Source of the DNA: Gemmatimonadota bacterium
GTDB taxonomy: Bacteria > Gemmatimonadota > Gemmatimonadetes > Longimicrobiales > Gaopeijiaceae
Length of the DNA stretch: 54,486 bases
NCBI GenBank assembly: GCA_036338615.1
Contig: JAYZBT010000079.1
Coordinates: 1-54,486, forward strand
Direction of reading: 5' to 3'
The notes beneath the pieces are model-generated. The model was not told where the DNA came from and searched no databases. It worked only from the letters and a program-made list of their open reading frames with translations. This document shows, piece by piece, positions 4,347 through 51,040 of this stretch (position 1 is the stretch's first letter; each line of letters starts with the position of its first letter). The position numbers and the translations under genes are program-made.

Positions 4347-4949
4347 GTGATGCCGGGACCCGTCCCCATCGCGAGTTATCGCTATCGGCACGAAGCGGAA
4401 TTCTCCGCGGGCTTCCTGGCAGACGCCGGCATCCCATTCCGGCTCCAAGCCGACGACGCCGGGGGCATGGAGTCCTTCCTCACCAGCGCTCGGCAGATCT
4501 GTCTCTGGGTTCGTGCCGAGGACGTAGCAAGGGCGCTCGAGGTGCTCGACGTTCCATTGGACGGCAGCGCTTCGGACGTGGAAGACACGGGTGCCGATCT
4601 CGATCCTGAACTGCCCCTCGAGGACGAGGACGGAGCCTACCCGTCGGGTCTGTTCCTGCCCGAGGCCGGTGCGCTGGAGATGGGCCTGCCGGCCGACGAA
4701 GCTCGCCGCTTGCCGGAAAGGCCGGACACTTCGCGGACCACGCTGAGCGGGGAAGAGCGCGTAGTCGCGGGCGCGCTTGGCCTCGGTCTCCTAGTGCTCG
4801 GCCTGGGGATAACGCCACTGGTCCTGGCGGCCGGCCTTTCCGTCGCGAGCCTCGTCCTGAGCGGTGTCTTTGGTGTCGCTGCGTTCTTTGGACGCGCCGT
4901 CGGGCCGTTCCGGGTCGCGTTACGCGTCCTCTCCGGACACCTTCCTTGA
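4347..4949 (+). CDS. DUF2007-like (putative signal-transducing) domain protein with C-terminal membrane segments
   Basis: The N-terminus (ASYRYRHEAEFSAGFLADAGIPFRL...VRAEDVARALEVL) resembles DUF2007. An acidic linker follows, then two hydrophobic stretches (VVAGALGLGLLVLGLGITPLVLAAGLSVASLVLSGVFGVAAFF). Confidence 0.5.
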   Translation: MMPGPVPIASYRYRHEAEFSAGFLADAGIPFRLQADDAGGMESFLTSARQICLWVRAEDVARALEVLDVPLDGSASDVEDTGADLDPELPLEDEDGAYPSGLFLPEAGALEMGLPADEARRLPERPDTSRTTLSGEERVVAGALGLGLLVLGLGITPLVLAAGLSVASLVLSGVFGVAAFFGRAVGPFRVALRVLSGHLP

Positions 4950-5036
4950 CCGGAATGGAATAGCGGAGCCCCCGCGGGCGTACAGGAGATGCCGTTGCTG
5001 CCACCCCCACCACACCCAGAAGCGTCCGAGTAGCCG

Positions 5037-6293
5037 ATGCGCGCAGTCTCATTCAACGTCACCGTCCCGGGTTTTCTCATCGGGAAGGGCCTGGGTGGCT
5101 TTACCGAGTCAGCCATCTTCGGCGGCTTCAGCGGCCTCCGTTTCGGGGATGTCGCGGAGCCACCATTGCCTGCGGCGGACTGGGTGCGTCTGGAGATCTT
5201 GAAGGCCGGGATCTGCGGAACCGATATCGGCACGTTGACGTTCAAAGCCAGTCCCGCCATGGAGCCCTTCGGGTCCTTCCCTGCCGTGCTCGGCCACGAG
5301 ATCCTGGCTCGGGTGCTGGAGATCGGAAGCGACGTACACTCAGTCGAGCCCGGGCAGCGCGTCGCGGTGGACCCAATGATCTCGTGCACCATGCGGGGGT
5401 TTGCGGGCGATACGCAGTGTGGCTCTTGTTCGGCTGGGTTGCATTGCACGTGCGAACGAAGCGGCGAGGAGGGCGCTCTGAAGGTCGACGGCAGCCCGCT
5501 CGAGCGTGGCGCGACGATCGGATATCATGCGTCGCTGCCGGGCGGGTTGGCGGAACGCATGATTGCGCACGAGAGTCAGCTCTTCGCGCTGGACGACGCG
5601 ATGAAGGAGCGGACCGCTGCGCTCATCGAACCACTGGCGGTCGGCATGCATGCGGTGCTCGGCTCGCGGCCTTTCGGTGCGGGGCCGGTATTGGTGATCG
5701 GGAGCGGCCCAATCGCGCTCGGCACGATTTGGTCTTTGCGAGCCGCCGGCTACTCGGGGGAGCTGGTTGCCCAGATCAAGCGCGGCCACGAGGCAGAGAT
5801 TGCGCGGGGGTTGGGAGCGAGCGAGGTGGTGGTTCCGGGCGACGAGGCCCGCCAAGCGCTCGTGGATACGGGCGCTCAAGCGTACATCCCGATCGTCGGT
5901 GACGAGGTATACGCGGGCGGAGGGTTCCCGCTGATCTTCGATTGCGTCGGCAGTGGACAGACCGTCAAGCAGTGTCTTCGCTACGCGGCCCCCCGCGGTC
6001 GCGTGGTGATGCTGGGTTGCGCCGCCGAGATCTCCAAGCTGGATCTGACCTTTGTCTGGGCGCGGGAACTCGACGTGAAGGGGTACGTCGGCTATGGCAC
6101 AGAGGACTGGCGCGGCGAGCGCGTGCATACGTTCCAGGTCACGCACGACATGTTGTTGGAAACCGAGGCCCCAGTAGAACCGATCGTGACCCACGTATAC
6201 CCGCTCGATCAGTACCGAGATGCGCTTTCGACGGCCACGAATCGCCGGCGAACGGGTTCGATCAAGGTGCTGCTCGATCCCACGGTGGGGTGA
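5037..6293 (+). CDS. zinc-dependent alcohol dehydrogenase (MDR superfamily)
   Basis: GICGTD and GHE zinc-ligand motifs, a structural-zinc Cys cluster (CGSCSAGLHC) and a Rossmann VIGSGPIALG. Confidence 0.8.
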   Translation: MRAVSFNVTVPGFLIGKGLGGFTESAIFGGFSGLRFGDVAEPPLPAADWVRLEILKAGICGTDIGTLTFKASPAMEPFGSFPAVLGHEILARVLEIGSDVHSVEPGQRVAVDPMISCTMRGFAGDTQCGSCSAGLHCTCERSGEEGALKVDGSPLERGATIGYHASLPGGLAERMIAHESQLFALDDAMKERTAALIEPLAVGMHAVLGSRPFGAGPVLVIGSGPIALGTIWSLRAAGYSGELVAQIKRGHEAEIARGLGASEVVVPGDEARQALVDTGAQAYIPIVGDEVYAGGGFPLIFDCVGSGQTVKQCLRYAAPRGRVVMLGCAAEISKLDLTFVWARELDVKGYVGYGTEDWRGERVHTFQVTHDMLLETEAPVEPIVTHVYPLDQYRDALSTATNRRRTGSIKVLLDPTVG

Positions 6294-41669: not shown

Positions 41670-41948
41670 TCAGCCAGCCTGTTGGCTGACCGACCAGGTC
41701 AGCGAGCCGCTGCCACCGAAGTGTCGCCGCTCCTGGTTCTCGACGGACGGATCACGGTACCGGATCAGGCTCGCCAGGTGTTCGAGGCCGTCCATGCAGC
41801 CGCGCACGGCGACTACCGTGTCGGGGTCGTTGTTCAACAGGCGACGACTGCGCGTGCCAATGTTCAAGAAGAGACCCTCGGTGAAGTCCGGCAAAGGATC
41901 ATCCGGGCCTACCGCATTGAGAATGCCGAGTACTTCGTCGGTATCCAT
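41670..41948 (-). CDS. hypothetical protein (92 aa)
   Basis: Good GC3 and tight spacing (5 nt to the next gene). No motif recognised. Confidence 0.4.
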   Translation of the reverse strand: MDTDEVLGILNAVGPDDPLPDFTEGLFLNIGTRSRRLLNNDPDTVVAVRGCMDGLEHLASLIRYRDPSVENQERRHFGGSGSLTWSVSQQAG

Positions 41949-41966
41949 TTCTCGAGGTCCGCCCTG

Positions 41967-42212
41967 CTAGGCCCACACGGCGTGCTCGATCTCGTGAAGC
42001 GCGTCCCACGCGAGTTGACGACCGCGCGTCTGATGTCGTCGGCGCTCGAAGAACCACTCGACGACCGCGACCGTGATCACGATACAGACCAGCTCGGTTC
42101 CCAGGTTGCCCAGGACCGTCCTGGCGTTCGTATCTGCGCCCATGTAGGTCGATAAGCCGAGAATCCCGGCAGCGACAGAGAGGCTTGCCAGCGTGACGAG
42201 CCAATGGAGCAT
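41967..42212 (-). CDS. small membrane protein (81 aa, two hydrophobic segments)
   Basis: LVTLASLSVAAGILGL and LVCIVITVAVVEWFF. It begins 3 nt after the upstream gene's stop. Confidence 0.45.
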   Translation of the reverse strand: MLHWLVTLASLSVAAGILGLSTYMGADTNARTVLGNLGTELVCIVITVAVVEWFFERRRHQTRGRQLAWDALHEIEHAVWA

Positions 42213-42215
42213 CGA

Positions 42216-43226
42216 TTATCTTCGGGTGACGAATACGGGTTGAGTCCATGCGACGCGACCACCGGAGTCGGTCACTGTGGCTCGAATGTAACCCACGTCG
42301 CGGCCCCCGAGGTCGAATGTAGCGGGGTTCTCGTCGGTCTCTGCCAAGACCACCCCCGAGGCGCCAGAGAAGACTGTGCTGAAGCGGAAGTCCCCCGCTT
42401 CCGAGATGTCGATCGTGATGCGATCGCTTGTGACGACGATATCCGAGAGGCTGACGCCCGTGCTCGCGTAGAAGCGACCCGACTCCAGCGACGCCATCAG
42501 CTCCAGGGCATCGAGTGACGGGGAGTTCACGGAGACCCATCCGCGGCCTGGATTCACCCTATCGGGCGCGAACTCCCCCTGGAAGTGATGCGCGTCGTCG
42601 ACCGCGATTCCGTAAAGGACCTTCCCCTCCGTGAGCAGGATGTCCCAGATCTCCTCGAGTCCTGGGCTGCCTCCTCCTCCCTCGTTGTGCACCGTGGGGT
42701 GTCCGTTCCAGATCTCGAGCAGCTTGTCGTTTTCGATCTGTCTCAGTTCGTCGACCCCGAACGACCAGCGGAAGTTCGGGTGATTGATGTGGGGCACGCC
42801 CTCGACTTCACGGATCGCGTCCACGTTCGACTGGATGGTGGCGACGAGCGACTCTGCCTGCCGGGCCTCGATGAGCCCCGGGATGTTGAGGCCGTTCACA
42901 TGGATCGACGCGTCCTCGAAGCGGCTCGTGACCTCCTCTCCGGGGATTAGCAAGAACGTCGAATCCACCAGGTGGCCGAGCGCCTCCGGATCGGTAAACA
43001 CGTTGTGATCGGTGAGCACGAGAAAATCGTAGCCGTGGTCCTTGTACCACGTCGCCACGTACTCGGGCGACGAGTCCCCGTCGCTCTCCGTGGTGTGGGC
43101 GTGCGTATTGCCCTTGAACCAACGGTCACCGACGTCTTGTGGGACCTCGAATTCGAACACCGTCGCCTGTTCGCATGCGGTAGCGGCCAGCGACGCGATC
43201 GCGAGCATCAGCACGCCACGCTTCAT
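42216..43226 (-). CDS. PHP-domain / CehA-McbA-type metallohydrolase, lipoprotein
   Basis: Lipobox LAATAC and PHP motif GNTHAHTTESDGD...FLVLTDHN. 4-nt overlap with the M28 gene stop. Confidence 0.7.
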   Translation of the reverse strand: MKRGVLMLAIASLAATACEQATVFEFEVPQDVGDRWFKGNTHAHTTESDGDSSPEYVATWYKDHGYDFLVLTDHNVFTDPEALGHLVDSTFLLIPGEEVTSRFEDASIHVNGLNIPGLIEARQAESLVATIQSNVDAIREVEGVPHINHPNFRWSFGVDELRQIENDKLLEIWNGHPTVHNEGGGGSPGLEEIWDILLTEGKVLYGIAVDDAHHFQGEFAPDRVNPGRGWVSVNSPSLDALELMASLESGRFYASTGVSLSDIVVTSDRITIDISEAGDFRFSTVFSGASGVVLAETDENPATFDLGGRDVGYIRATVTDSGGRVAWTQPVFVTRR

Positions 43227-46033
43227 CGACCGCGACCTGCTTCGACCCGCGAGGCCGCCGCCGTGGTCGTGTCCACCGGCGTGGCCGCGGCACGCGCCCC
43301 GGTCATCGAGTCCGGCATCTGCTGCAGGTCGTACGGGGCTTCGCCGTCTCCCGCCAAGTCGAGCGTTGAAAAGCGCGTGAGCAGCATCGCGCGATCGCTC
43401 AGCCGGGTCACATCGGGGGCCAGCGTCGCGGGCCGCTCGAATGGGTCGGAATCGAGAAGCTCCCCGGGCCGGAGTGTGTGTTCGATGACATTCAGCTCGA
43501 GCGCCTCGCCTTCCGGCACATCGAGCTCCAGCAAAACGACCGGGTCGGGCTCACCCCAGTGGTCGGCCCAGAGAAGCGAGGCGGGCTCAGTCAGCGGTTT
43601 CCCGTTGATCGACCGTATTCGCGTCCCGGAGCCGTTGGCGTATTGGAAGCGAAGCATCTCGGCTCCGATCTCTGAACGGACGCTCATCAGAACCCGGCGC
43701 ACTCCTTCGATGCTCTCACCCGATTCGATGAAGATCTCGGGTCCGGGAACATCGACGACGTCGGCGGAGACGATGGGAACGTCACCGGCGCGATATCCGA
43801 ACTCGCCCAGGTCCCGCACGGCACCGAAGGGAGCCCCGGCGCCGGCGACAGCCCACTCGCGGGCGGCCATGTGAGCCGTGTCCGAGAGGGGCGCGGTGAC
43901 CCAAAGAGCCTCTCGAGCCTCGTGATCGAGCGCGTACACGAGGGTGGAGGGCAAGGGGCGCTCCGGAGTGGTCCTCGACATGAGCAGTCCGATTCCCAGC
44001 GCCGCACCACACAGTACCAGGCTGGTCAGCGGGGCCCACCACGCGTTGGGGTGTCTCATTCCGTCGATGGCGGGCAGGCACAGGTAGGCTGTGACCGCCG
44101 TCAGCACCGCCAACGCGGGGGCCATGCGAAACGACAGCGCGAGCCAGAGCAGCTCCGTGAGGGGCTCCAGGAATGCGAGCACTGCAAGCGCCGCCACAAC
44201 GGCCAACCCCCACCCGACCACGCCCGATGCGTTCCTACGCAGGACGCCCAGCAGAAGGATCACCGAGAGAGCGGCCGCGACCGGCCACTGGAAGTTCATG
44301 GCGGCGAGCGGCATTTCGTAGCTCAGCCATGCCGCTCCCGCCAGCGGAACGATGAGGGCCCCCAGCGCAAGCGAACTCAAATGCACGAATCTGCGAACGA
44401 CTCCGTGCAGTGATGTGACGATCGTGAGCACTGCGGCGGCGAGCGCGAGAAGGTACCAGCCCTCACTGTGATACGCCGAGCCGTACAGGCTGTCGAGTTC
44501 CGGATGGAAGCCCGGTAGCCATCCTACGAGCAGCATAGCTGCCCCATAGGAGAGGGCGGCGCCAGCGATGGAGACACCCGCACCGATCAGGATGCCGGTG
44601 AGTCCGCCTGTCACCGCCCGTGTCACGATCACGGCGAGGGCGAAAAGCGCGAGCAGGACCCCCGAGATGGGCAGAATCCACTTCTCGTCGTAGACGAAAA
44701 AGCCGAAGCCGGGCACGTGGAAGTAGGCGACATTGGGCGCGTCGACCTCGAGCAGGCTCTCGTTTCCGAGGTGCCGCAAGACGTTGAGCGCGTGCATGCC
44801 GTGGTGCTGAAGAGTCGACTCGGACAGGTTCTCGGGCGAGTCGTACGCCTGGTGATACACGTGCGCGTTGTCGATCGCGGCGAAGTTCAGCCCTTGGACG
44901 CCGGCCTCGCGGAACGGCGTGAAGTCGGTGTCGTTCGGCAGTCGCTTGTAGATCTCGTAGGACATCGAGTTGCCATACGCCGTCGGGTCGGACGCGGCCA
45001 GCGCGCGCACGATCCAGCCGTTTTCCTCACCTGTCTCGAACATGATGGACGGTCCGCCGCCGCCCCTCATCTCGATCGAGATCGCGAGCCGCACGTCCTC
45101 CATCCATGGGTGCCCGTCGACGAACGCCCGGGAGCCCAGCAGCCCGAGCTCTTCGGCGTCGGTGAAGAGCACGATGAGGTCGTTCTGAAGCGGTCCGCTC
45201 GCCTGGATCGCCCGTAGGGCCTCCAGGATGGTGACTACGCCCGCGCCGTCATCGGCGGCTCCGCGGGCGAGTTCACGACTGTCATAGTGTGCTGTGACGA
45301 GGACCGCGCCCGTCGACGATGTGCCTGCGAGCCTGGCCACCACGTTGCGAACCGTGGCCGACCGCGCGAAGGACGCGTTCTGGATCAGGCTCGGCGTGGT
45401 CTGAATCTCGGGTTCCAGGCCCAAGGCCGTCAGACGATCCACCAGATACTGGCGCACGCGAGCGTGCTCCGGCGAGCCGGTCGGGTGTGCTTCGCGCGCG
45501 ATTTCCACCAGGGTCACCATTGCCCGCGCCGACGAGAACTCGGCCTCGCCCGCGTTCGCGGGCACGGGTCGCGGCATCCCGGTACGACTGCTCGCGAACA
45601 CGCAGGCGGCGAACAGCAGGGCCGCCGTGGTGGGTCCCCGCCATTTGCTGCGCGGGCCATCATCAACCGGCGCAGCCGCGGGCCGTGCGGCGGCCTCTTT
45701 CGATTCGGCCGGCTCATCCTTCGAGGTCGGCTGCCCCTCTGAAGCCGCCGCCTTCGCCTTCTTTTTCGCTGCGGCAGCAGTGCGTTTTTCTGCCTTGGCT
45801 TTCGCTCGAGCCGCTTTCGCGGCCTCCTTCCCACCGCCGGCCGGCGCCCCAGAGGGGGTGGGCCGGGGGATGGTCACGGGAGCAGGTGGCTCTTCTCCGA
45901 ACAGGGCCGCCATCTCCTCTGCGCTCATCTCCGGACCGTCGCTGGACAGCTCGCCCTCGAGTTCCTTGAGGTCTTCCTCGGTGAGTCCCAATTCCTTGTC
46001 GGAAGGGAGATCGGGAAAATCGGAGGTGCTCAT
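43223..46033 (-). CDS. integral-membrane M28-family aminopeptidase-like protein with acidic plus Lys/Ala-rich N-terminal tail
   Basis: 936 aa. M28 metal-ligand contexts VTAHYDS, DDGAGVVTILEAL and FTDAEELGLLGS. About 9 hydrophobic segments follow the peptidase domain. An N-terminal cytoplasmic tail covers residues 1-134. Confidence 0.8.
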   Translation of the reverse strand: MSTSDFPDLPSDKELGLTEEDLKELEGELSSDGPEMSAEEMAALFGEEPPAPVTIPRPTPSGAPAGGGKEAAKAARAKAKAEKRTAAAAKKKAKAAASEGQPTSKDEPAESKEAAARPAAAPVDDGPRSKWRGPTTAALLFAACVFASSRTGMPRPVPANAGEAEFSSARAMVTLVEIAREAHPTGSPEHARVRQYLVDRLTALGLEPEIQTTPSLIQNASFARSATVRNVVARLAGTSSTGAVLVTAHYDSRELARGAADDGAGVVTILEALRAIQASGPLQNDLIVLFTDAEELGLLGSRAFVDGHPWMEDVRLAISIEMRGGGGPSIMFETGEENGWIVRALAASDPTAYGNSMSYEIYKRLPNDTDFTPFREAGVQGLNFAAIDNAHVYHQAYDSPENLSESTLQHHGMHALNVLRHLGNESLLEVDAPNVAYFHVPGFGFFVYDEKWILPISGVLLALFALAVIVTRAVTGGLTGILIGAGVSIAGAALSYGAAMLLVGWLPGFHPELDSLYGSAYHSEGWYLLALAAAVLTIVTSLHGVVRRFVHLSSLALGALIVPLAGAAWLSYEMPLAAMNFQWPVAAALSVILLLGVLRRNASGVVGWGLAVVAALAVLAFLEPLTELLWLALSFRMAPALAVLTAVTAYLCLPAIDGMRHPNAWWAPLTSLVLCGAALGIGLLMSRTTPERPLPSTLVYALDHEAREALWVTAPLSDTAHMAAREWAVAGAGAPFGAVRDLGEFGYRAGDVPIVSADVVDVPGPEIFIESGESIEGVRRVLMSVRSEIGAEMLRFQYANGSGTRIRSINGKPLTEPASLLWADHWGEPDPVVLLELDVPEGEALELNVIEHTLRPGELLDSDPFERPATLAPDVTRLSDRAMLLTRFSTLDLAGDGEAPYDLQQMPDSMTGARAAATPVDTTTAAASRVEAGRGR

Positions 46034-46038
46034 CTCCT

Positions 46039-48366
46039 TTATCTCGCCAAGACTCTCGCAACATCGTCGATCGCCGCGCGCACGACGGACGACGAGAGTC
46101 CGGATCCGTTCGAAAGAATGGAAAAAATCACTTCGGTGCCATCGTTCTGTACGAGATATCCAGAAAGAGAGTTCACGTTGGAGATCGTCCCTGTCTTAGC
46201 GAACACTCTCCCCTCGAGGTCCATGAGACGCCGTTCGAGCGTCGAGTTCTCCTCGCCGGGCCGTGCCAAGGCAGATCGAAATGCGGCCGCGTTCGCCCCG
46301 CCGCTCATGTACTGGAGAATGCGGACCAGCGCTCTGGGCGTAACCAGATTGTATGCGGACAGGCCCGACCCGTCCCTCGGTGCCACGTCGAGGCTGTCGA
46401 CCCCGACCTGCTCCGTGAGAAAGCCCAGAATCGCGTCGATACCCTCGGACCAACTACCCTGCTCCCCTCGTTCGGCTCCGAGTGTACGAATGAGTTGCTC
46501 GGTCATCCAATTCTGACTCGGTTTCAGAATTCCGGCGATCAGTTGTGAGAGCGGAGGTGACTCGAGCGTGAAGACGAGACCTGCGTTCGGGCATTCCCTC
46601 ACCGCACCCGAGACACACCCTCGACCGACTCGCACGCTGTCGACCCACACCACGCGTGCCCCGTGCTCGAGCGTGATGCCCGCGTCTGCGATCGCTCTCC
46701 CCAGCGCTGCCGTTGCTTGGCGAACCGGATCGCGAATCGCGAACGAAAGCGTATCCACTGTGCCGAACTCAGCGTTCCCCTCCAGAACGAGCCTCCGCGA
46801 TTCGGGCAGGTAGCTCGGACGCACGCGGGTCGAGCTGTCGGGTGGGGAGGTCCTGAGCCGCGAGGTCACGTAGTCGTCGCTGCCCGTCGGGGTCCACCGA
46901 ACCGAAGCTGGTGAGCCGACCGCGGCACCTGCGGCGACGATGAGCTGGATCTCACCTTCGTCGATCGCGAAGGCGCCACCCGTCGCTCCGTACCCGTACC
47001 GAAGATCCTCCACTTCCCAAGTCGGCCCTACCGTGGCGGAGTCCCATGCGGAAACATCGACGAAGACAGATCCTCCGACGGCCGTTAGCCCCCGTCCTCT
47101 CAGCGAGTCCGCGATTGCGGCGAGCGCGGCCTCTCCCGAGTCCCAGTATCGGTCCGAGAGAGTAGGGTCTCCCGAAGCGAGGACGACCAGGTCACCGTCG
47201 AGCAGTGATCCGAGGAGCGAGCCAGTGGCCCAAACCTCGGTCCGGTAGCGGTAGTCCGGACCGAGCAGCGTCAGCGCCGTGGCGGTGACCAGGATCTTCT
47301 GGTTGGAGGCCGGCACGAACTTCTGATGAGCGTTACGAGAATAGAGTGTGCGGCCTGTGTGGGCGTCGATCGCCAGAATGCCGAAGTGCACCTGATCGAC
47401 AGGCGACGCGCTCAGAACTTGCTCAATGGCCGCACGATCGGAGCCTCTTGAACCGGCACCTCCGACGGAGGCGCATCCGATCTGAACTGCGCCAGCGAGC
47501 AAGACCAAGAGACTCTTGAGCGCTCGCTTCTTCTTGGTCGTGTGCCCAACGCGGCTGAACAAGGCGGCGTGCACACACGTGAGTCCTCCGCGTTCAGCGA
47601 CCTCGCTCGCCGTGAGCCCAGTATTCTTCTTCATGGCGCGGGCGAGAGAACTCGCCGTCGAGTACCCGAGCAGGAAAGCTGTCTCCTCGACCGTACAGTG
47701 GTCCCGTCCAAGGTACTCCCCAGCCCGTAGGAGTCGTCCCCAAAGCTGAAGTGTCTTGGGAGCTGGAAGGCCGCTCCGGTGCAGTGCGGACACCAACCCT
47801 CGAGGCGTGCGGCCCATCGCGGCCGCGAACTGCTCGGCGGACGTCTCGGACGTAGCGTGCTCGACCGTCCACGAGACGGCCCGAGAGCCCAGTTCGCCAA
47901 AGCGTGCTTCCAGGGCTGTTGCCACCCGTTCTGCGGTATTCGCGGCCAACGCCCGGTCCACCAGGGCTCGAATGTCGGCTGCGCTGTGTTGGTCCGCGAG
48001 AAGGACGCCATCAACGCCGAGTTCGCCCAGGTCGTAGAACTCGAGTTCTCCCGTGATGTTCGCGTATGCGATAATCGCGAGTCGAGGATACTTCTTTCGA
48101 AGCGCCTCGACTTCAGAGTGTGCGTCGGCTCGGGTGGGGTGATCCGCGTCAACAACACATCCATCGATGGACTCCCTTGTCAGCGTCTCATCCAGAGCCC
48201 GCCACGAAGAGCGCACGATCAGGTCGTGGCTTCCCCCGAGGGCGGTGCTCATTCGCGCCGCTGCTCGAACATCTGTTTGGAGGACTGCTAGTGAGGCCAA
48301 GGGTCGTTCCTGCAAGGTCCCTAGGAGGGGCCTCGCGAAAGTGTCGGCCTCCGCGTGGATCAGCAA
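46039..48366 (-). CDS. fusion protein: receiver-like domain + AraC-type HTH + single TM segment + PBP4/DacB-type (peptidase S13) D-Ala-D-Ala carboxypeptidase domain
   Basis: One uninterrupted 775-codon ORF. The HTH is EETAFLLGYSTASSLARAMKKNTGLTASE. HTTKKKR is followed by LKSLLVLLAGAVQIGCASVGG. The PBP4 motifs are PASNQK (SxxK) and AKTGT (KTG). Confidence 0.7.
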   Translation of the reverse strand: MLIHAEADTFARPLLGTLQERPLASLAVLQTDVRAAARMSTALGGSHDLIVRSSWRALDETLTRESIDGCVVDADHPTRADAHSEVEALRKKYPRLAIIAYANITGELEFYDLGELGVDGVLLADQHSAADIRALVDRALAANTAERVATALEARFGELGSRAVSWTVEHATSETSAEQFAAAMGRTPRGLVSALHRSGLPAPKTLQLWGRLLRAGEYLGRDHCTVEETAFLLGYSTASSLARAMKKNTGLTASEVAERGGLTCVHAALFSRVGHTTKKKRALKSLLVLLAGAVQIGCASVGGAGSRGSDRAAIEQVLSASPVDQVHFGILAIDAHTGRTLYSRNAHQKFVPASNQKILVTATALTLLGPDYRYRTEVWATGSLLGSLLDGDLVVLASGDPTLSDRYWDSGEAALAAIADSLRGRGLTAVGGSVFVDVSAWDSATVGPTWEVEDLRYGYGATGGAFAIDEGEIQLIVAAGAAVGSPASVRWTPTGSDDYVTSRLRTSPPDSSTRVRPSYLPESRRLVLEGNAEFGTVDTLSFAIRDPVRQATAALGRAIADAGITLEHGARVVWVDSVRVGRGCVSGAVRECPNAGLVFTLESPPLSQLIAGILKPSQNWMTEQLIRTLGAERGEQGSWSEGIDAILGFLTEQVGVDSLDVAPRDGSGLSAYNLVTPRALVRILQYMSGGANAAAFRSALARPGEENSTLERRLMDLEGRVFAKTGTISNVNSLSGYLVQNDGTEVIFSILSNGSGLSSSVVRAAIDDVARVLAR

Positions 48367-48411
48367 CTTTTCCGGGTCCGAAGGCCGCCCGGCGTGGGTG
48401 CGACAGCTGGG

Positions 48412-48735
48412 CTAGCCGCCGTCCTCCACGGTCACGGCGGTCCCGTAGCAGAGCATCTCGGCCGCGCCGGCCATCACCATCGAGGTTTGGAAGCGGACGC
48501 AGATGACCGCGTCGGCTCCGAGCGCCTGGGCTTCTTCCACCATTCGGTCGAGGGCCTGCTCACGAGCTTCCGCGAGCATCTTCGTGTATTCGTGCACCTC
48601 GCCGCCGGCAATGTTTCGCAGCGCCGCCATGATGTCACGCCCAATGTGACGCGAGCGAATGGAACTGCCCCGGACCATGCCCAGCGGTTGCTTGATCCGC
48701 GCGCCGTGCAATTCAGGGGTAGTGACGATAATCAT
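48412..48735 (-). CDS. YbjQ-family (UPF0145) protein
   Basis: 107 aa with typical YbjQ sequence (IVTTPELHG..., GGEVHEYTKMLAEAREQALDRM..., GADAVICVRF). 4-nt overlap with the anti-sigma gene stop. Confidence 0.85.
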   Translation of the reverse strand: MIIVTTPELHGARIKQPLGMVRGSSIRSRHIGRDIMAALRNIAGGEVHEYTKMLAEAREQALDRMVEEAQALGADAVICVRFQTSMVMAGAAEMLCYGTAVTVEDGG

Positions 48736-49157
48736 CTGTGCACGTCCTTATAGGGGTCGGTGCCCCACTCGCGGTATCGATCCCAGATCACGGAAGCCAG
48801 AAGCGTGAGTATGCCGATCACGATCGCGCCCGTGGCGAGCTTCTCCCAGGGGTCCTCGGGCGATGTAGTGAAAACATACGCGCCGTAGCCGGTCCAAGCG
48901 ATGACCCCTACGATCATCAGGATCCAACCGATAGGTCTTGTCACCCTCGCGTTTACCTGGTCCCAGACGGACTTGTCATACGTACCGGGGTCGAAGCTCA
49001 GTCCTTGGAAGTCCGTCCTCATCGCGCGGAAAATCGCCAACTCGCGCTTGAGTTCGGTGGCACGCTCGAGCTCGGCGTCGAGGCGGGCGCGCTGCTCGGG
49101 CGGCATTTCGCCGTCCATGTAGCGCATCAGGTCTTCCTTGGAGACTGGTTCGGTCAT
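48732..49157 (-). CDS. putative anti-sigma factor (membrane protein, no zinc ligands)
   Basis: It lies directly downstream of the ECF sigma gene. The N-terminal LMRYMDGEMPPEQRARLDAEL matches the anti-sigma domain pattern but lacks HxxxCxxC. Two TM segments. Confidence 0.6.
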   Translation of the reverse strand: MTEPVSKEDLMRYMDGEMPPEQRARLDAELERATELKRELAIFRAMRTDFQGLSFDPGTYDKSVWDQVNARVTRPIGWILMIVGVIAWTGYGAYVFTTSPEDPWEKLATGAIVIGILTLLASVIWDRYREWGTDPYKDVHR

Positions 49158-49179
49158 GGTGGTTGCTATGGTGGTTGCT
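49156..49179. repeat. perfect 12-bp tandem duplication ATGGTGGTTGCT x2 in the sigma/anti-sigma spacer
   Basis: Read directly: 49156-49167 equals 49168-49179. It spans the anti-sigma start codon (49155-49157) and the sigma stop codon (49178-49180). Confidence 0.9.
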
Positions 49180-49744
49180 AGGGGTACTCGACGCCCTGAC
49201 TTACGAGCACTTGCTTGAGCGCGTGTCGCGCGTGATAGAGGCGGCTCGCCACGGTCCCTTCCGGAATTTCCAGGACCTCGGCGATCTCCGAATATCGGAA
49301 GCCTTCGAGCTCCTTGAGAACCAGGATCTCGCGGTGTTCGTCGCCGATCTTCTCGAGCCCCTTCCAGAGCGTCTCACGCGCCCTGCCGCGCTGATGGGCG
49401 CGCTCGGGACCCTTTTCGCTGCTCGCGGGACGAGCGTCGAGTCGCTCATCGAGCGTCTCTACCTTGAACCGCGCCTGCCGACTCCGAAGCATGTCTCTGC
49501 ACTGGTTCCTGAGTATCTGGAAGAACCACGGGCCGAACGGCCGTCGCAGGTCGAAGCGGTGCAGCGACCTGAACGTTTTCACGAACGCCTCCTGCAAGGC
49601 GTCCTGCGCGTCTTCCTTATTGCCCATCATCGCCACGGCGAGTCGCAGACCCGACGGCTCGTAGGCTCGGACGATGGGCTCGTAGAACCGAGCATCACCG
49701 GTTTTGACCTTGGATATCAGTTCGCGCTCCAGCTCAGGCTGCAA
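49178..49744 (-). CDS. ECF-type RNA polymerase sigma-70 family factor
   Basis: Region 2 (EDAQDALQEAFVKTFRSLHRFD) and region 4 (VLKELEGFRYSEIAEVLEIPEGTVASRLYHAR). The TTG at 49744 has AGGAG 6 nt upstream. The longest ORF extends to a GTG at 49795. Confidence 0.85.
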   Translation of the reverse strand: MQPELERELISKVKTGDARFYEPIVRAYEPSGLRLAVAMMGNKEDAQDALQEAFVKTFRSLHRFDLRRPFGPWFFQILRNQCRDMLRSRQARFKVETLDERLDARPASSEKGPERAHQRGRARETLWKGLEKIGDEHREILVLKELEGFRYSEIAEVLEIPEGTVASRLYHARHALKQVLVSQGVEYP

Positions 49745-49810
49745 AGTTGCTCCTCTCGTGACTGCTACTACGCAGGTCCCCTGGAACTTCTTCACTGCGA
49801 GCCTGGATGT

Positions 49811-51040
49811 CTATGAAACGAGCTCCGCCAACGCCGCGATCAGGGTCTCGAGCTCCTCGTCCGTATTGAAGTAGTGCGGGGAGATGCGCAGGCAACCGTC
49901 GACTCCCTTCTCGTCGTAGTCGATGATGGCGTCGGTACTCTCTTGGCCCGTCGTATTGACGCCGCGCGTGCGCAATTCACGAGCGAGGTCTGGCGCGTGC
50001 CATCCGTCGACCGAGGCGGTCACGGTGGCGCACAATACCGGCCCATGGTCGAGCAAGCGGACCCCGTCGACTCCGGCGAGCATGACACGGAGCCGATCGG
50101 CTAGACCCCATGAACGGTCGCGAATCGTGTCCAGGCCCAGGTCGGTGGCGTACCGAGCCGCTACTCCGGTCGCGCGCACCAGCCCCCAGAAGAACTCCCA
50201 CGTCTCGAACCGCTTGGCGTCCGGGGCGGGTTGGTAGAGGTCGGGAGCGACCCAATCCGCACCCCTCAGGTCCGGGAACAGCGGCTCCAGGCCCGCCTCC
50301 AGCGCCCGGTCGGAGACGTAGAGGAAGCCGGCTCCGCGAGGCCCGCGCAGGTACTTCCGCGCGGTAGCCGAGAAGAAGTCGCAGGCGATCGCCTGGACGT
50401 CCACCGGCATCTGTCCGACCGACTGGCACCCGTCCACGAGGTACAGTATGTCGCGAGCCCGGCACATTGCCCCGATGGCTTCGACATCTTGAACCAGGCC
50501 AGAGTTCGTCGGGATCTGAGTGACCGCGACGAGACGTGGACGACGACGGTGGATGAGTCCTTCGATCGCGCCCAGGTCGACCCCCCCCTCGGGCGCATCC
50601 GGCGCTCGCACCACTTCCACGCCGAAGCGTTGTGCCAGGGCCAGGTACTGGATTTGGTTGGAGACGTAGTCGTTTCGCGTGGTCAGGACCACGTCGCCCG
50701 GGGAGAACCGAACCGCGGACAGTGCCGAGACGAACGAAGCCGTTGCGTGTTCGCTGAAAGCGATGTTGGACGCAGCGGTGCCGAGCAGCTTCGCCACGTC
50801 CTCATAAGCGGTGGCGATTTCCGCGGAGGCTTCAGATTCTGCCTCGTAGCCGCCGATACTGGCTTCCAGGTCCAGGTGGGTCCTGATCGCGTCGAGGACC
50901 GGGCCGGGCATGAGCGATGCCCCAGCGCTGTTGAGGTGTACGCGGTGCGCGCACCCTGGCGTATCTGCTCTGAGTCCGGCGATATTCACGGTTCGCTCAA
51001 TGGTGGCATGTGGATGGGTACCACAGATTGACTGTATCAC
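49811..51040 (-). CDS. class V aminotransferase / cysteine-desulfurase-like PLP enzyme
   Basis: 409 aa with a class V fold pattern and PLP-lysine context SATARKYLRGPRG. The start may be internal. Confidence 0.8.
   Translation of the reverse strand: MIQSICGTHPHATIERTVNIAGLRADTPGCAHRVHLNSAGASLMPGPVLDAIRTHLDLEASIGGYEAESEASAEIATAYEDVAKLLGTAASNIAFSEHATASFVSALSAVRFSPGDVVLTTRNDYVSNQIQYLALAQRFGVEVVRAPDAPEGGVDLGAIEGLIHRRRPRLVAVTQIPTNSGLVQDVEAIGAMCRARDILYLVDGCQSVGQMPVDVQAIACDFFSATARKYLRGPRGAGFLYVSDRALEAGLEPLFPDLRGADWVAPDLYQPAPDAKRFETWEFFWGLVRATGVAARYATDLGLDTIRDRSWGLADRLRVMLAGVDGVRLLDHGPVLCATVTASVDGWHAPDLARELRTRGVNTTGQESTDAIIDYDEKGVDGCLRISPHYFNTDEELETLIAALAELVS

Follow-up and report, generated by a model that had tools for sequence, protein, structure and literature searches.

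The window, that is the whole stretch of 54,486 nucleotides of Gemmatimonadota DNA that was analysed, carries on its reverse strand an open reading frame (ORF) of 775 codons (46039..48366). According to the ORF listing of the window it opens with TTG and ends with a stop codon at 46041-46039, and its codons are uninterrupted, as an earlier note on this DNA had stated. The features of the locus are given below, with residues numbered along the 775-codon ORF.

49178-49795, reverse strand: ECF sigma factor, upstream (Pfam)
48732-49157, reverse strand: 141-aa membrane protein, anti-sigma-like, with a weak zf-HC2 match, upstream (Pfam)
48412-48735, reverse strand: YbjQ, upstream (Pfam)
48338..48366, reverse strand: conserved promoter-like element, TTGCTG (48366-48361), 17-nt spacer, CACTTT (48343-48338) (comparison of upstream regions)
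46039..48300, reverse strand: most likely the real gene, starting at TTG 48300, for a 753-aa precursor with receiver-like domain, AraC HTH, internal lipoprotein signal peptide and PBP4
47998..48294, reverse strand: atypical (pseudo-)receiver domain, residues 25-123 (AF2 fold, Foldseek matches)
47860..47982, reverse strand: long connecting helix from receiver-like domain to HTH, residues 129-169 (AF2 secondary structure, pLDDT >90)
47593..47838, reverse strand: AraC/XylS-type DNA-binding domain, residues 177-258 (Pfam HTH_18, AF2 helices)
47572..47589, reverse strand: possible secondary internal start, GGAGGA (47589-47584), 10 nt, GTG of V265 (47574-47572) (window sequence)
47473..47553, reverse strand: internal lipoprotein-type signal peptide, n-region R272-K284, h-region S285-G297, lipobox to C298
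46045..47433, reverse strand: PBP4 / peptidase S13 DD-carboxypeptidase-endopeptidase domain, residues 312-774 (Pfam, TIGR00666, Foldseek)
47296..47307, reverse strand: SxxK, S354-N-Q-K357, at least 90% conserved, aligning to PASTQK of E. coli PBP4
46510..46518, reverse strand: SxN, S617-Q-N619, invariant in the family alignment, aligning to SDN of E. coli PBP4
46189..46197, reverse strand: KTG, K724-T-G726, invariant, aligning to KTG of E. coli PBP4
43223..46033, reverse strand: downstream operon partner, 936-aa membrane M28 peptidase (Pfam Peptidase_M28, 155.8 bits)

The true start is most likely TTG 48300. It was placed there because the N-termini of the family, which read M/L-A-x-L-A-I-L-Q-P-D, align to this TTG at codon 23 of the ORF; the 753 aa that result can be set beside the 750-757 aa of the full-length homologs. 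The promoter-like element coincides with about codons 1-12 of the 775-codon ORF. When upstream regions were compared, its motif, CTTGC[CT]G-~17 nt-CATCTTCGC, was found to recur 5' of the regulator or fusion start, and CATCTTC was present in 28/48 of these regions. The motif emerged only from this comparison, a simple sigma-70 scan of 45900-50000 having given no promoter, and a terminator scan of the same interval returned one terminator-like site, which is at chance level. No operator for the AraC domain was identified, the promoter-like motif being the only such element upstream of the gene.

In the AF2 model (DSSP; pLDDT 91), residues 25-123 adopt a (beta-alpha)5 CheY-like fold, which was matched by Foldseek to the receiver domains of MicA and ArcA (TM 0.85-0.87, rmsd 1.6-2.1). 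The acidic residue after beta1 (D32, kept in 87/88 homologs), the phospho-acceptor Asp at the end of beta3 (D73, 107/113) and the proline of the DxxxP loop (P77, 108/113) are retained. Since the canonical Thr/Ser at the end of beta4 is replaced by C/Y and the Lys after beta5 by A/S/G, and since Pfam Response_reg gave no match at E<=1 in the fusion protein, the domain was classed as an atypical or pseudo-receiver. The receiver that had been read from the sequence at about residues 1-140 is thus present as a fold at 25-123, but not as a typical Response_reg domain. No cognate histidine kinase was found among the conserved neighbours in the locus comparison.

The AraC-type HTH that had been proposed at about residues 175-262 was recovered by Pfam HTH_18 (PF12833), which matches residues 181-258 and spans 2-79 of the 80 profile positions, with a score of 35.8 bits that is marginal relative to the cutoff of 33.6. 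The AF2 helices of the domain are confident at 177-258, and the core residues W209-G-R-L, G234-Y and R243-A are invariant or at least 90% conserved. On profile and model together, the fusion carries an AraC/XylS-type double-HTH and is a putative DNA-binding regulator.

Beyond a Gly-rich tether (residues 299-311), the remainder of the protein is the full-length S13/PBP4 domain with SxxK (SNQK) and KTG that had been proposed, and SxN is present too. Peptidase_S13 (PF02113) matches residues 312-774 with 273.3 bits (cutoff 22.8) and TIGR00666 PBP4 scores 231.9 bits (cutoff 107.8). In the same way, the domain was related by phmmer to 2ex2, 1w5d and 1w79 with E about 1e-32 to 1e-36, and its three-domain PBP4 fold was aligned by Foldseek to R39, PBP4a and E. 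coli PBP4 (1w79, 1w5d, 2ex2; TM 0.82-0.88 over 460-486 columns). The fold and the three motifs are shared with the class C low-molecular-mass PBPs of the PBP4/DacB group (E. coli PBP4, B. subtilis PBP4a, Actinomadura R39), and with both intact the PBP4 half looks catalytic. Unlike these enzymes, the window protein has a lipoprotein-type and not a type I signal peptide, and in the fused clade a cytoplasmic regulator of ~275 residues precedes this signal peptide in the same polypeptide.

The one-ORF combination of PF12833 and PF02113 was observed in more than 100 full-length homologs, down to ~53% identity, drawn from NCBI, ENA, JGI and Logan assemblies. Moreover, both modules lie in one stop-free ORF in ~38 species-representative Gemmatimonadota genomes (47-80% identity). 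Because the same architecture is kept in all these homologs and genomes, the absence of a stop between the modules, already noticed in the window, is no indel artefact, and the regulator-PBP4 fusion is genuine and conserved. That two genes were merged in this window alone, by an indel from sequencing or assembly or by the loss of a stop codon, is practically inconceivable, being already refuted by in-frame fusions from so many independent sources, even though a few related loci from long-read assemblies (L046, L053, L072) are frameshifted at or near the junction. Homologs of 531-541 aa (P0011, P0039, P0043, P0107) were considered as standalone PBP4s and set aside; they begin inside the HTH and represent truncated start calls or deletion derivatives.

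The gene for the M28 peptidase starts 5 nt past the fusion stop and follows the fusion in 35/38 fused loci, where the two genes often overlap by 4 nt. The upstream sigma, anti-sigma-like and YbjQ genes (48412..49795) accompany 35/38 fused loci, 13-14/14 loci in which regulator and PBP4 are adjacent and unfused, and 16-20/32 loci with PBP4 only. Indeed, the comparison of related genomes that the earlier note had proposed as a check revealed that the fused architecture is widespread, but also that regulator and PBP4 exist as separate genes (e.g. in L050, L051, L078) and PBP4 alone at other orthologous loci. Because the same succession of genes, sigma / anti-sigma-like / YbjQ / (regulator) / PBP4 / M28, is kept in each of the three classes, these loci are orthologous. 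The linkage of regulator and PBP4 is older than their fusion. Since separate-gene and PBP4-alone loci exist, PBP4 does not depend on the regulator to act as an ordinary lipoprotein enzyme. In the NJ tree, PBP4-only lineages nest at ~13 places within the fused clade. A deletion scar is visible in L001, with a stop directly 5' of ...TVEETAFSLGYSTA, and HTH remnants are kept in L025, L037 and L079. The regulator part has thus been lost repeatedly in evolution while signal peptide and PBP4 were kept, from which it follows that the segment stayed a working signal peptide in the fused lineage.

By definition, the signal peptide of a lipoprotein stands at the N-terminus and is disposable. That of the fused genes occupies ORF residues 272-298, away from the N-terminal position that such a peptide has in lipoprotein precursors, and no precedent for a lipobox ~275 residues from the N-terminus was found in the literature. 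Its n-region contains KKKR..K, its h-region has 13 residues and its lipobox is Q-I-G-C298, with the Cys codon at 47475-47473. The Cys is invariant (112/112 family members) and position -1 is G/A/S in 111/112; across the 112 members, the uncharged run has a median of 13 residues and the n-region a net charge of +3. Only 33/112 conform to the strict [LVI][ASTVI][GAS]C pattern, and Q-I-G-C of the window is itself non-canonical at -3; Q at this position is also found in genuine N-terminal versions such as those of L054 and L047.

In the unfused orthologs, this segment comes after a start codon of their own, as MLRRRPSKWLGIALVSGGCASAG in L051, MRHSSGLLPALFVAATVLGAGCGG in L078 and MNLLKKKLPRASRSIAKWIIVVLLSGCATAG in L027, and their signal peptides measure 18-40 residues. 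Internal and N-terminal versions agree in hydrophobic run (13 vs 13) and charge (+4 vs +4), and the post-Cys motif CA[TS][LF]G is common to both. This comparison of sequences shows the linker to be homologous to a genuine lipoprotein signal peptide, apparently that of PBP4 itself, which is now internal to the ORF. With an invariant Cys, an h-region of ~13 residues and homology to the N-termini of unfused orthologs, what had been described as a single TM helix is better described as a lipoprotein-type signal peptide. The N-in/C-out topology proposed with it is consistent with the positive charge of the n-region and was retained. When the post-Cys residues A-S-V-G-G are counted with the hydrophobic run, the uncharged stretch totals ~21 residues, so that a marginal TM span would still fit the sequence taken by itself. 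In the full-length AF2 model, two confident modules are joined by a 35-residue segment with pLDDT <50, and a model of the N-terminus only shows one continuous helix through residues 262-297.

The gene is best explained by two once neighbouring genes having been joined into a conserved translational fusion, one for an orphan atypical receiver/AraC regulator and the downstream one for a PBP4 lipoprotein. A linker that is a lipobox signal peptide predicts lipidation followed by a cut by signal peptidase II, which would separate the two halves. It seems reasonably probable that the precursor is processed in this manner, into a PBP4 lipoprotein and a regulator with a signal-peptide tail. The precursor would be made from TTG 48300 and its internal signal peptide would engage Sec, with the regulator in the cytoplasm and PBP4 across the membrane. 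Lgt would then lipidate Cys298 and signal peptidase II (LspA) would cut at Gly297/Cys298. One product would be a normal mature lipoprotein DD-carboxy/endopeptidase, and the other a regulator of ~275 residues whose C-terminus consists of the n- and h-regions of the signal peptide. This tail may hold the regulator at the membrane, and the regulator could leave when the tail is cut by a signal-peptide-clearing protease (S2P/RseP-type or SppA) or when the short tail slips out. Because both are made as one precursor, each regulator molecule would be coupled one-to-one to the export and maturation of a PBP4. We infer the lipidation and the cleavage in the fused context; the action of Lgt and LspA on a precursor with a lipobox ~275 residues in is assumed, and any subsequent freeing of the regulator, like the genes that it would target, probably the locus itself, is speculative.

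Several elements of this scheme have counterparts in known systems. In RsiV and RsiP, the cut at site 1 is made by signal peptidases, and lipoprotein signal peptides are processed first by type II signal peptidase and next by RseP/Eep (PMC10202637); E. coli RseP clears signal peptides from the membrane (PMC8144685). Like RsiV and RsiP, the fusion would be a type II (N-in) membrane protein with a cytoplasmic domain that controls transcription, in which a first cut by signal peptidase at the outer face would prepare the membrane-bound remainder for an S2P (PMC10202637), RasP being the S2P that follows signal peptidase at site 1 in the case of RsiV/RsiP. It differs from them in that the peptidase would be of type II (LspA) and not type I and would act once the precursor is lipidated, that the cytoplasmic part is a DNA-binding regulator and not an anti-sigma factor, that the outer part is an enzyme and not a ligand receptor, and that the predicted cleavage is probably constitutive and not ligand-gated. 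In parallel, the enterococcal pheromones offer the case of a lipoprotein signal peptide with a second function after type II signal peptidase and then the S2P Eep/RseP (PMC10202637); whereas they are secreted peptides of 7-8 residues, the signal peptide considered here would carry a whole folded cytoplasmic transcription factor.

A tentative extension, which we regard as rather doubtful, is that lipoprotein maturation is itself the signalling event, with a whole transcription factor built as a cytoplasmic extension ahead of the signal peptide, LspA at site 1, a signal-peptide-clearing intramembrane protease at site 2 and one regulator freed per PBP4 exported and lipidated. If true, regulator release would be a direct read-out of envelope and lipoprotein biogenesis flux, feeding back on the sigma/anti-sigma-like/YbjQ/PBP4/M28 locus. 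The fusion could also be selectively neutral and without regulatory logic, and it would then show neatly why joining genes across a cleavable signal peptide is tolerated and reversible. A phylum-level clade keeps a folded regulator of ~275 residues ahead of a lipoprotein signal peptide. If processed as predicted, Sec, Lgt and LspA would accept deeply internal lipoboxes, and a transcription factor would join the short list of things released via signal-peptidase-dependent proteolysis. Fused, adjacent and PBP4-only loci form a natural series and offer ready-made experimental controls.

In a different and unlikely reading, PBP4 is mainly translated alone, from GTG 47574 in the window or from the Met of a 'GGM' motif in many homologs, as an ordinary lipoprotein precursor, and the read-through fusion is a minor or neutral by-product of the loss of the regulator stop codon. 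The earlier statement that no start codon is placed for a separate PBP4 was inaccurate, for the GTG of V265, 10 nt after GGAGGA in the window, would yield a signal peptide of 33 residues, and those of unfused orthologs range in length as given above. A Met at -36/-37 from the Cys ('GGM') occurs in 17/29 fused loci, GGA at G260 is mildly enriched (10/27 fused loci vs a background of 20%), and the regulator part is decayed or deleted in some lineages (L036, L016, L001). However, no start is conserved: the codon of V265 is GTG in 14/27 fused loci (background 46%) and one that cannot serve as a start in 12/27, 12/29 lack 'GGM', and at least 4/29 have neither Met nor GTG. GGA usage is similar in unfused (class B) regulators, and regulator residues are strongly conserved within the fused clade. 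A conserved internal Shine-Dalgarno sequence with GTG at G260-V265 was rejected because the enrichment is mild and non-universal, and the conserved M245 was rejected as a fusion-specific internal start, since it has no upstream Shine-Dalgarno sequence and the same RAMK is present in unfused L051. Since without a stop codon each regulator-translating ribosome makes the full fusion, the fate of the regulator is tied to the signal peptide, and internal initiation would supplement the translational fusion with processing rather than replace it.

It is quite improbable that the protein remains whole, as a bitopic one-component sensor of the ToxR/CadC kind with a permanent anchor, in which the periplasmic PBP4 senses muropeptides, beta-lactams or the state of the wall and signals to the AraC domain. 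This was essentially what the earlier note had put forward, and the single conserved ORF, the N-in/C-out topology, the ~21 uncharged residues obtained with the post-Cys positions and the continuous helix 262-297 of the N-terminus-only model are in keeping with it. The acylatable Ser is retained as well. The BlaR1 sensor domain also retains such a Ser. On the contrary, an invariant lipobox Cys, a small residue at -1 and an h-region of 13 residues would have no role in a plain anchor, and the segment is homologous to, and statistically the same as, the N-terminal signal peptides of orthologs, which function with regulator and enzyme as separate proteins or with no regulator at all. The enzyme keeps its catalytic motifs and three domains with no degeneration of the sensor type, the junction has a pLDDT <50 in the full-length model, and no protease or other transducing domain was found by Pfam. 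A stable membrane-tethered sensor with PBP4 as its ligand-binding domain is thus not what the locus points to, nor does anything point to beta-lactam or muropeptide sensing, Pfam having detected no protease domain of the BlaR1 type.

With ToxR, CadC and TcpP the fusion shares a DNA-binding domain in the cytoplasm at the N-terminus, a single hydrophobic segment and a C-terminal domain in the periplasm; in those regulators the DNA-binding domain is a winged helix, the TM anchor is permanent and the sensor is non-enzymatic, whereas the fusion has an AraC-type domain, a lipobox signal peptide and a complete enzyme. With BlaR1 and MecR1 it has in common a penicillin-binding-fold domain outside the membrane that is linked to gene regulation. 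BlaR1, however, combines four TM helices, a cytoplasmic zinc protease that acts on a separate repressor and a class D beta-lactamase-like sensor, none of which is present in the fusion; with one hydrophobic segment and no protease-domain match, it falls outside the BlaR1/MecR1 type.

The lack of a known precedent for the fusion, which the earlier note had suspected, agrees with our search, in which no published description of it was found in the searchable literature. Public databases name the fused proteins only as DD-carboxypeptidases, and surveys that go by annotation therefore miss the regulator half. Standalone receiver-like/AraC regulators of ~255-285 aa share the module, with 25-45% identity over residues 24-270; they are soluble and end shortly past the HTH, without hydrophobic tail or fused enzyme. 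Their genes often adjoin Aminotran_5 and Peptidase_S13 genes, and one of them was named 'AraC-like DNA-binding protein' by JGI.

The ORF of 775 codons described in the earlier note was confirmed, with a TTG start, and HMM searches placed both the AraC HTH and the Peptidase_S13 domain where they had been expected (residues ~180-260 and ~310-770, respectively). Residues are numbered along this ORF, the probable protein number being the ORF number minus 22.

Features of the fusion gene and its surroundings
46039..48366, (-): fusion ORF, 775 codons from TTG
Residues 181-258: HTH_18 (Pfam), 35.8 bits, cutoff 33.6
Residues 312-774: Peptidase_S13 (Pfam), 273 bits, cutoff 22.8
Residues 337-754: TIGR00666 PBP4 (NCBIfam), 232 bits, cutoff 107.8
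S354-N-Q-K357: SxxK, by alignment to E. coli PBP4 (2ex2)
S617-Q-N619: SxN, by the same alignment
K724-T-G726: KTG, by the same alignment
TTGCTG 48366-48361, 17 nt, CACTTT 48343-48338, (-): promoter-like element, the window's copy of a shared upstream motif
48412-49795, (-): conserved trio of ECF sigma factor, 141-aa membrane protein (anti-sigma-like, weak zf-HC2 match) and YbjQ-family protein
43223-46033, (-): M28 peptidase, 936 aa, starting 5 nt past the fusion stop (4-nt overlap in relatives)

The receiver-like character of the N-terminus, first read from the sequence, is borne out by structure prediction. AF2 models residues 1-300 at pLDDT 91: residues 25-123 form a (beta-alpha)5 fold, and a helix of 40 residues lies between it and the AraC helices (177-258). 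Foldseek matched the N-terminal domain to response-regulator receiver domains (MicA and ArcA, TM 0.85-0.87). D32, D73 and the DxxxP loop are kept; since the domain lacks the conserved receiver Thr/Ser and Lys and Pfam Response_reg gave no match in the ORF, it is an atypical or pseudo-receiver. In the same way, Foldseek with the full-length model retrieved R39 DD-peptidase, B. subtilis PBP4a and E. coli PBP4 at TM 0.82-0.88. The SxxK (SNQK) and KTG motifs recognized earlier are accompanied by SxN, and each is invariant or at least 90% conserved in alignments of the fusion family.

The two modules had been thought to be joined by a single TM helix. A hydrophobic segment is indeed present, but it is built like a lipoprotein signal peptide and not like a 20-residue anchor, as indicated by 112 full-length homologs anchored on the residue aligned to the lipobox cysteine C298.

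Composition of the hydrophobic segment in 112 homologs
+1: Cys, invariant (112/112)
-1: G/A/S (111/112)
-2: mostly S/A/T
-3: mostly L/A/Q/T
+2: Ala (108/112)
Uncharged run ahead of Cys: median 13 residues, 12-13 in 85/112
Net charge over the preceding 12 residues: median +3

The decisive evidence for reading the segment as a signal peptide comes from orthologous loci, in which stop-to-stop ORFs were classified with domain HMMs as fused (class A), adjacent but separate (class B) or PBP4 alone (class C). All three classes keep the order ECF sigma, 141-aa anti-sigma-like protein, YbjQ, regulator where present, PBP4 and M28 peptidase, the first three genes forming a trio immediately ahead of PBP4 whether it is fused, unfused or alone, which makes the PBP4 genes orthologs. 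A true class B locus has a stop at the end of the regulator and a separate start codon for PBP4, after which comes the homologous segment, as in locus L051 (MLRRRPSKWLGIALVSGGCASAG) and in L078 from a complete chromosome (MRHSSGLLPALFVAATVLGAGCGG); in L050 regulator and PBP4 are in one frame, with a stop between them. Class C genes, up to 72% identical to the window's PBP4 part, likewise have their own start codon and then the homologous segment (for instance L027, MNLLKKKLPRASRSIAKWIIVVLLSGCATAG). Internal and N-terminal segments agree in h-run (13 versus 13) and charge (+4 versus +4), and they have the same lipobox and the same post-Cys CA[TS][LF]G motif. Residues 274-308 (n-region, h-region, lipobox and Gly tether) score below pLDDT 50 in full-length AF2 modelling and lie between two confident modules. 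Altogether, the segment is a conserved lipoprotein signal peptide that looks functional.

The most likely mechanism, which we favor with some confidence, is that the precursor would insert N-in/C-out through this internal signal peptide, be lipidated by Lgt on Cys298 and then be cut by LspA ahead of Cys298, yielding an ordinary PBP4 lipoprotein and a regulator whose C-terminus is the signal peptide's n- and h-region. We infer that processing takes place in the fused context; fused and unfused precursors differ only in how long their cytoplasmic extension is. Release of the regulator by an S2P/RseP-type or SppA-type protease could plausibly follow, its later fate being speculative. In E. coli, signal peptides are removed by RseP (PMC8144685). 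Signal peptidases make the site 1 cut in RsiV and RsiP, and lipoprotein signal peptides are processed by type II signal peptidase and then by Eep/RseP (PMC10202637).

The fusion might also be neutral and tolerated since the signal peptide gets cleaved, although regulator residues are strongly conserved within the fused clade. It is rather unlikely that PBP4 is instead translated from a start inside the ORF. The window does contain GGAGGA (47589-47584) followed after 10 nt by GTG at V265 (47574), contrary to the earlier statement that no start codon was available for a separate PBP4. Among fused loci, the V265 position is GTG in 14/27 (background 46%) and the G260 position is GGA in 10/27 (background 20%), a 'GGM' Met occurs in 17/29, and at least 4/29 have neither start. 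Nevertheless, there is no stop codon and every regulator molecule would still be born fused, so that internal initiation would supplement the favored mechanism without replacing it. The ToxR/BlaR1-like sensor staying intact, as proposed in the earlier note, is improbable, as it leaves unexplained the invariant lipobox with its short h-region, the unfused and PBP4-only orthologs and the intact enzyme.

Finally, an assembly error merging two separate genes is refuted, with hardly any probability left to it, by the recurrence of the same pair in one ORF in more than 100 homologs and ~38 species-representative loci. A search of 5.8 billion proteins gave 278 matches, more than 100 of them full-length (725-800 aa) with PF12833 and PF02113, at identities down to ~53%, from NCBI, ENA, JGI and Logan assemblies and, where named, from Gemmatimonadota, Longimicrobiales or Gemmatimonadales. 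A scan of species-representative genomes yielded 80 loci, practically all of them from Gemmatimonadota, and both modules lie within one stop-free ORF in ~38/80. In the related loci L046, L053 and L072 a frameshift, either at the junction or within PBP4, puts regulator and PBP4 out of frame with each other; the end of the regulator and the beginning of PBP4 still look like those of the fused type, and these breaks are probably assembly indel errors and not real gene splits. L046 and L053 are both of the MFD05684 MAG series.

In a rough NJ tree of the PBP4 domain, without bootstrap, classes C and B are basal to one large, mostly fused clade, in which PBP4-only lineages are nested at ~13 places. 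One locus, L001 (GCA_029245345.1, Longimicrobiales; 4800-5120), carries a deletion scar with a stop directly ahead of ...TVEETAFSLGYSTA: the deletion has taken out three genes (sigma, anti-sigma-like, ybjQ) together with ~220 residues from the start of the regulator, leaving an HTH remnant, signal peptide and PBP4 directly after an Aminotran_5 gene. In L025, L037 and L079 the query match still begins inside the HTH, L036 (5998-7935) has kept the receiver-like part and lost the HTH, and L016 (5914-8052) has lost ~70 residues between receiver and HTH through an internal deletion. Throughout, signal peptide and PBP4 form a self-sufficient unit. The homolog P0070 is a fused variant without signal peptide, whose PBP4, provided that the sequence is right, would not leave the cytoplasm.

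By itself, the N-terminal module makes up a widespread family of soluble proteins (255-285 aa), of which a search retrieved 968 representatives at E<=1e-3; two of them that were located in genomes adjoin Aminotran_5 and a Peptidase_S13 gene. The regulator-PBP4 partnership is therefore older than the fusion. At L085 (151-4920), P0192, a distant regulator of the standalone receiver-like/AraC kind, adjoins an Aminotran_5 gene and lies ~2 kb from a 639-aa Peptidase_S13 protein with LysM repeats; the regulator-PBP4-aminotransferase association therefore reaches beyond the fused clade.

Public sources name the fused proteins DD-carboxypeptidases. As the earlier note had supposed, the searched literature holds no description of an AraC-PBP4 architecture, nor of a transcription factor placed ahead of an internal lipobox. 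The parts are known (PBP4, AraC regulator, lipoprotein signal peptide and possibly signal-peptidase/S2P proteolysis), and their combination is new to that literature.

The fusion protein most likely has 753 aa, because codon 23 of the ORF (TTG 48300) is where family N-termini (M/L-A-x-L-A-I-L-Q-P-D-A-R) align and the promoter-like element (48338-48366) covers the first 'codons' of the ORF; the public 737-aa gene call from M39 (P0001) is probably too short. Common to the upstream regions of fused genes is a motif, CTTGC[CT]G, ~17 nt, CATCTTCGC, which sits between ybjQ and the regulator or fusion gene in most fused loci (upstream regions L002-L059) and is missing where the regulator directly abuts ybjQ (L050, L063-L066, L069, L070, L077). 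It may be a housekeeping promoter consensus of the phylum or a locus-specific element.

The M28 protein lies downstream in 35/38 fused loci. Besides the peptidase domain it has a Lys/Ala/Glu-rich N-terminus and a long, apparently multi-spanning C-terminal half. Beyond it, two ORFs, 42216-43226 (-) of 336 aa and 41899-42540 (-) of 213 aa, have no Pfam match, and in several related loci the 336-aa ORF again follows M28.
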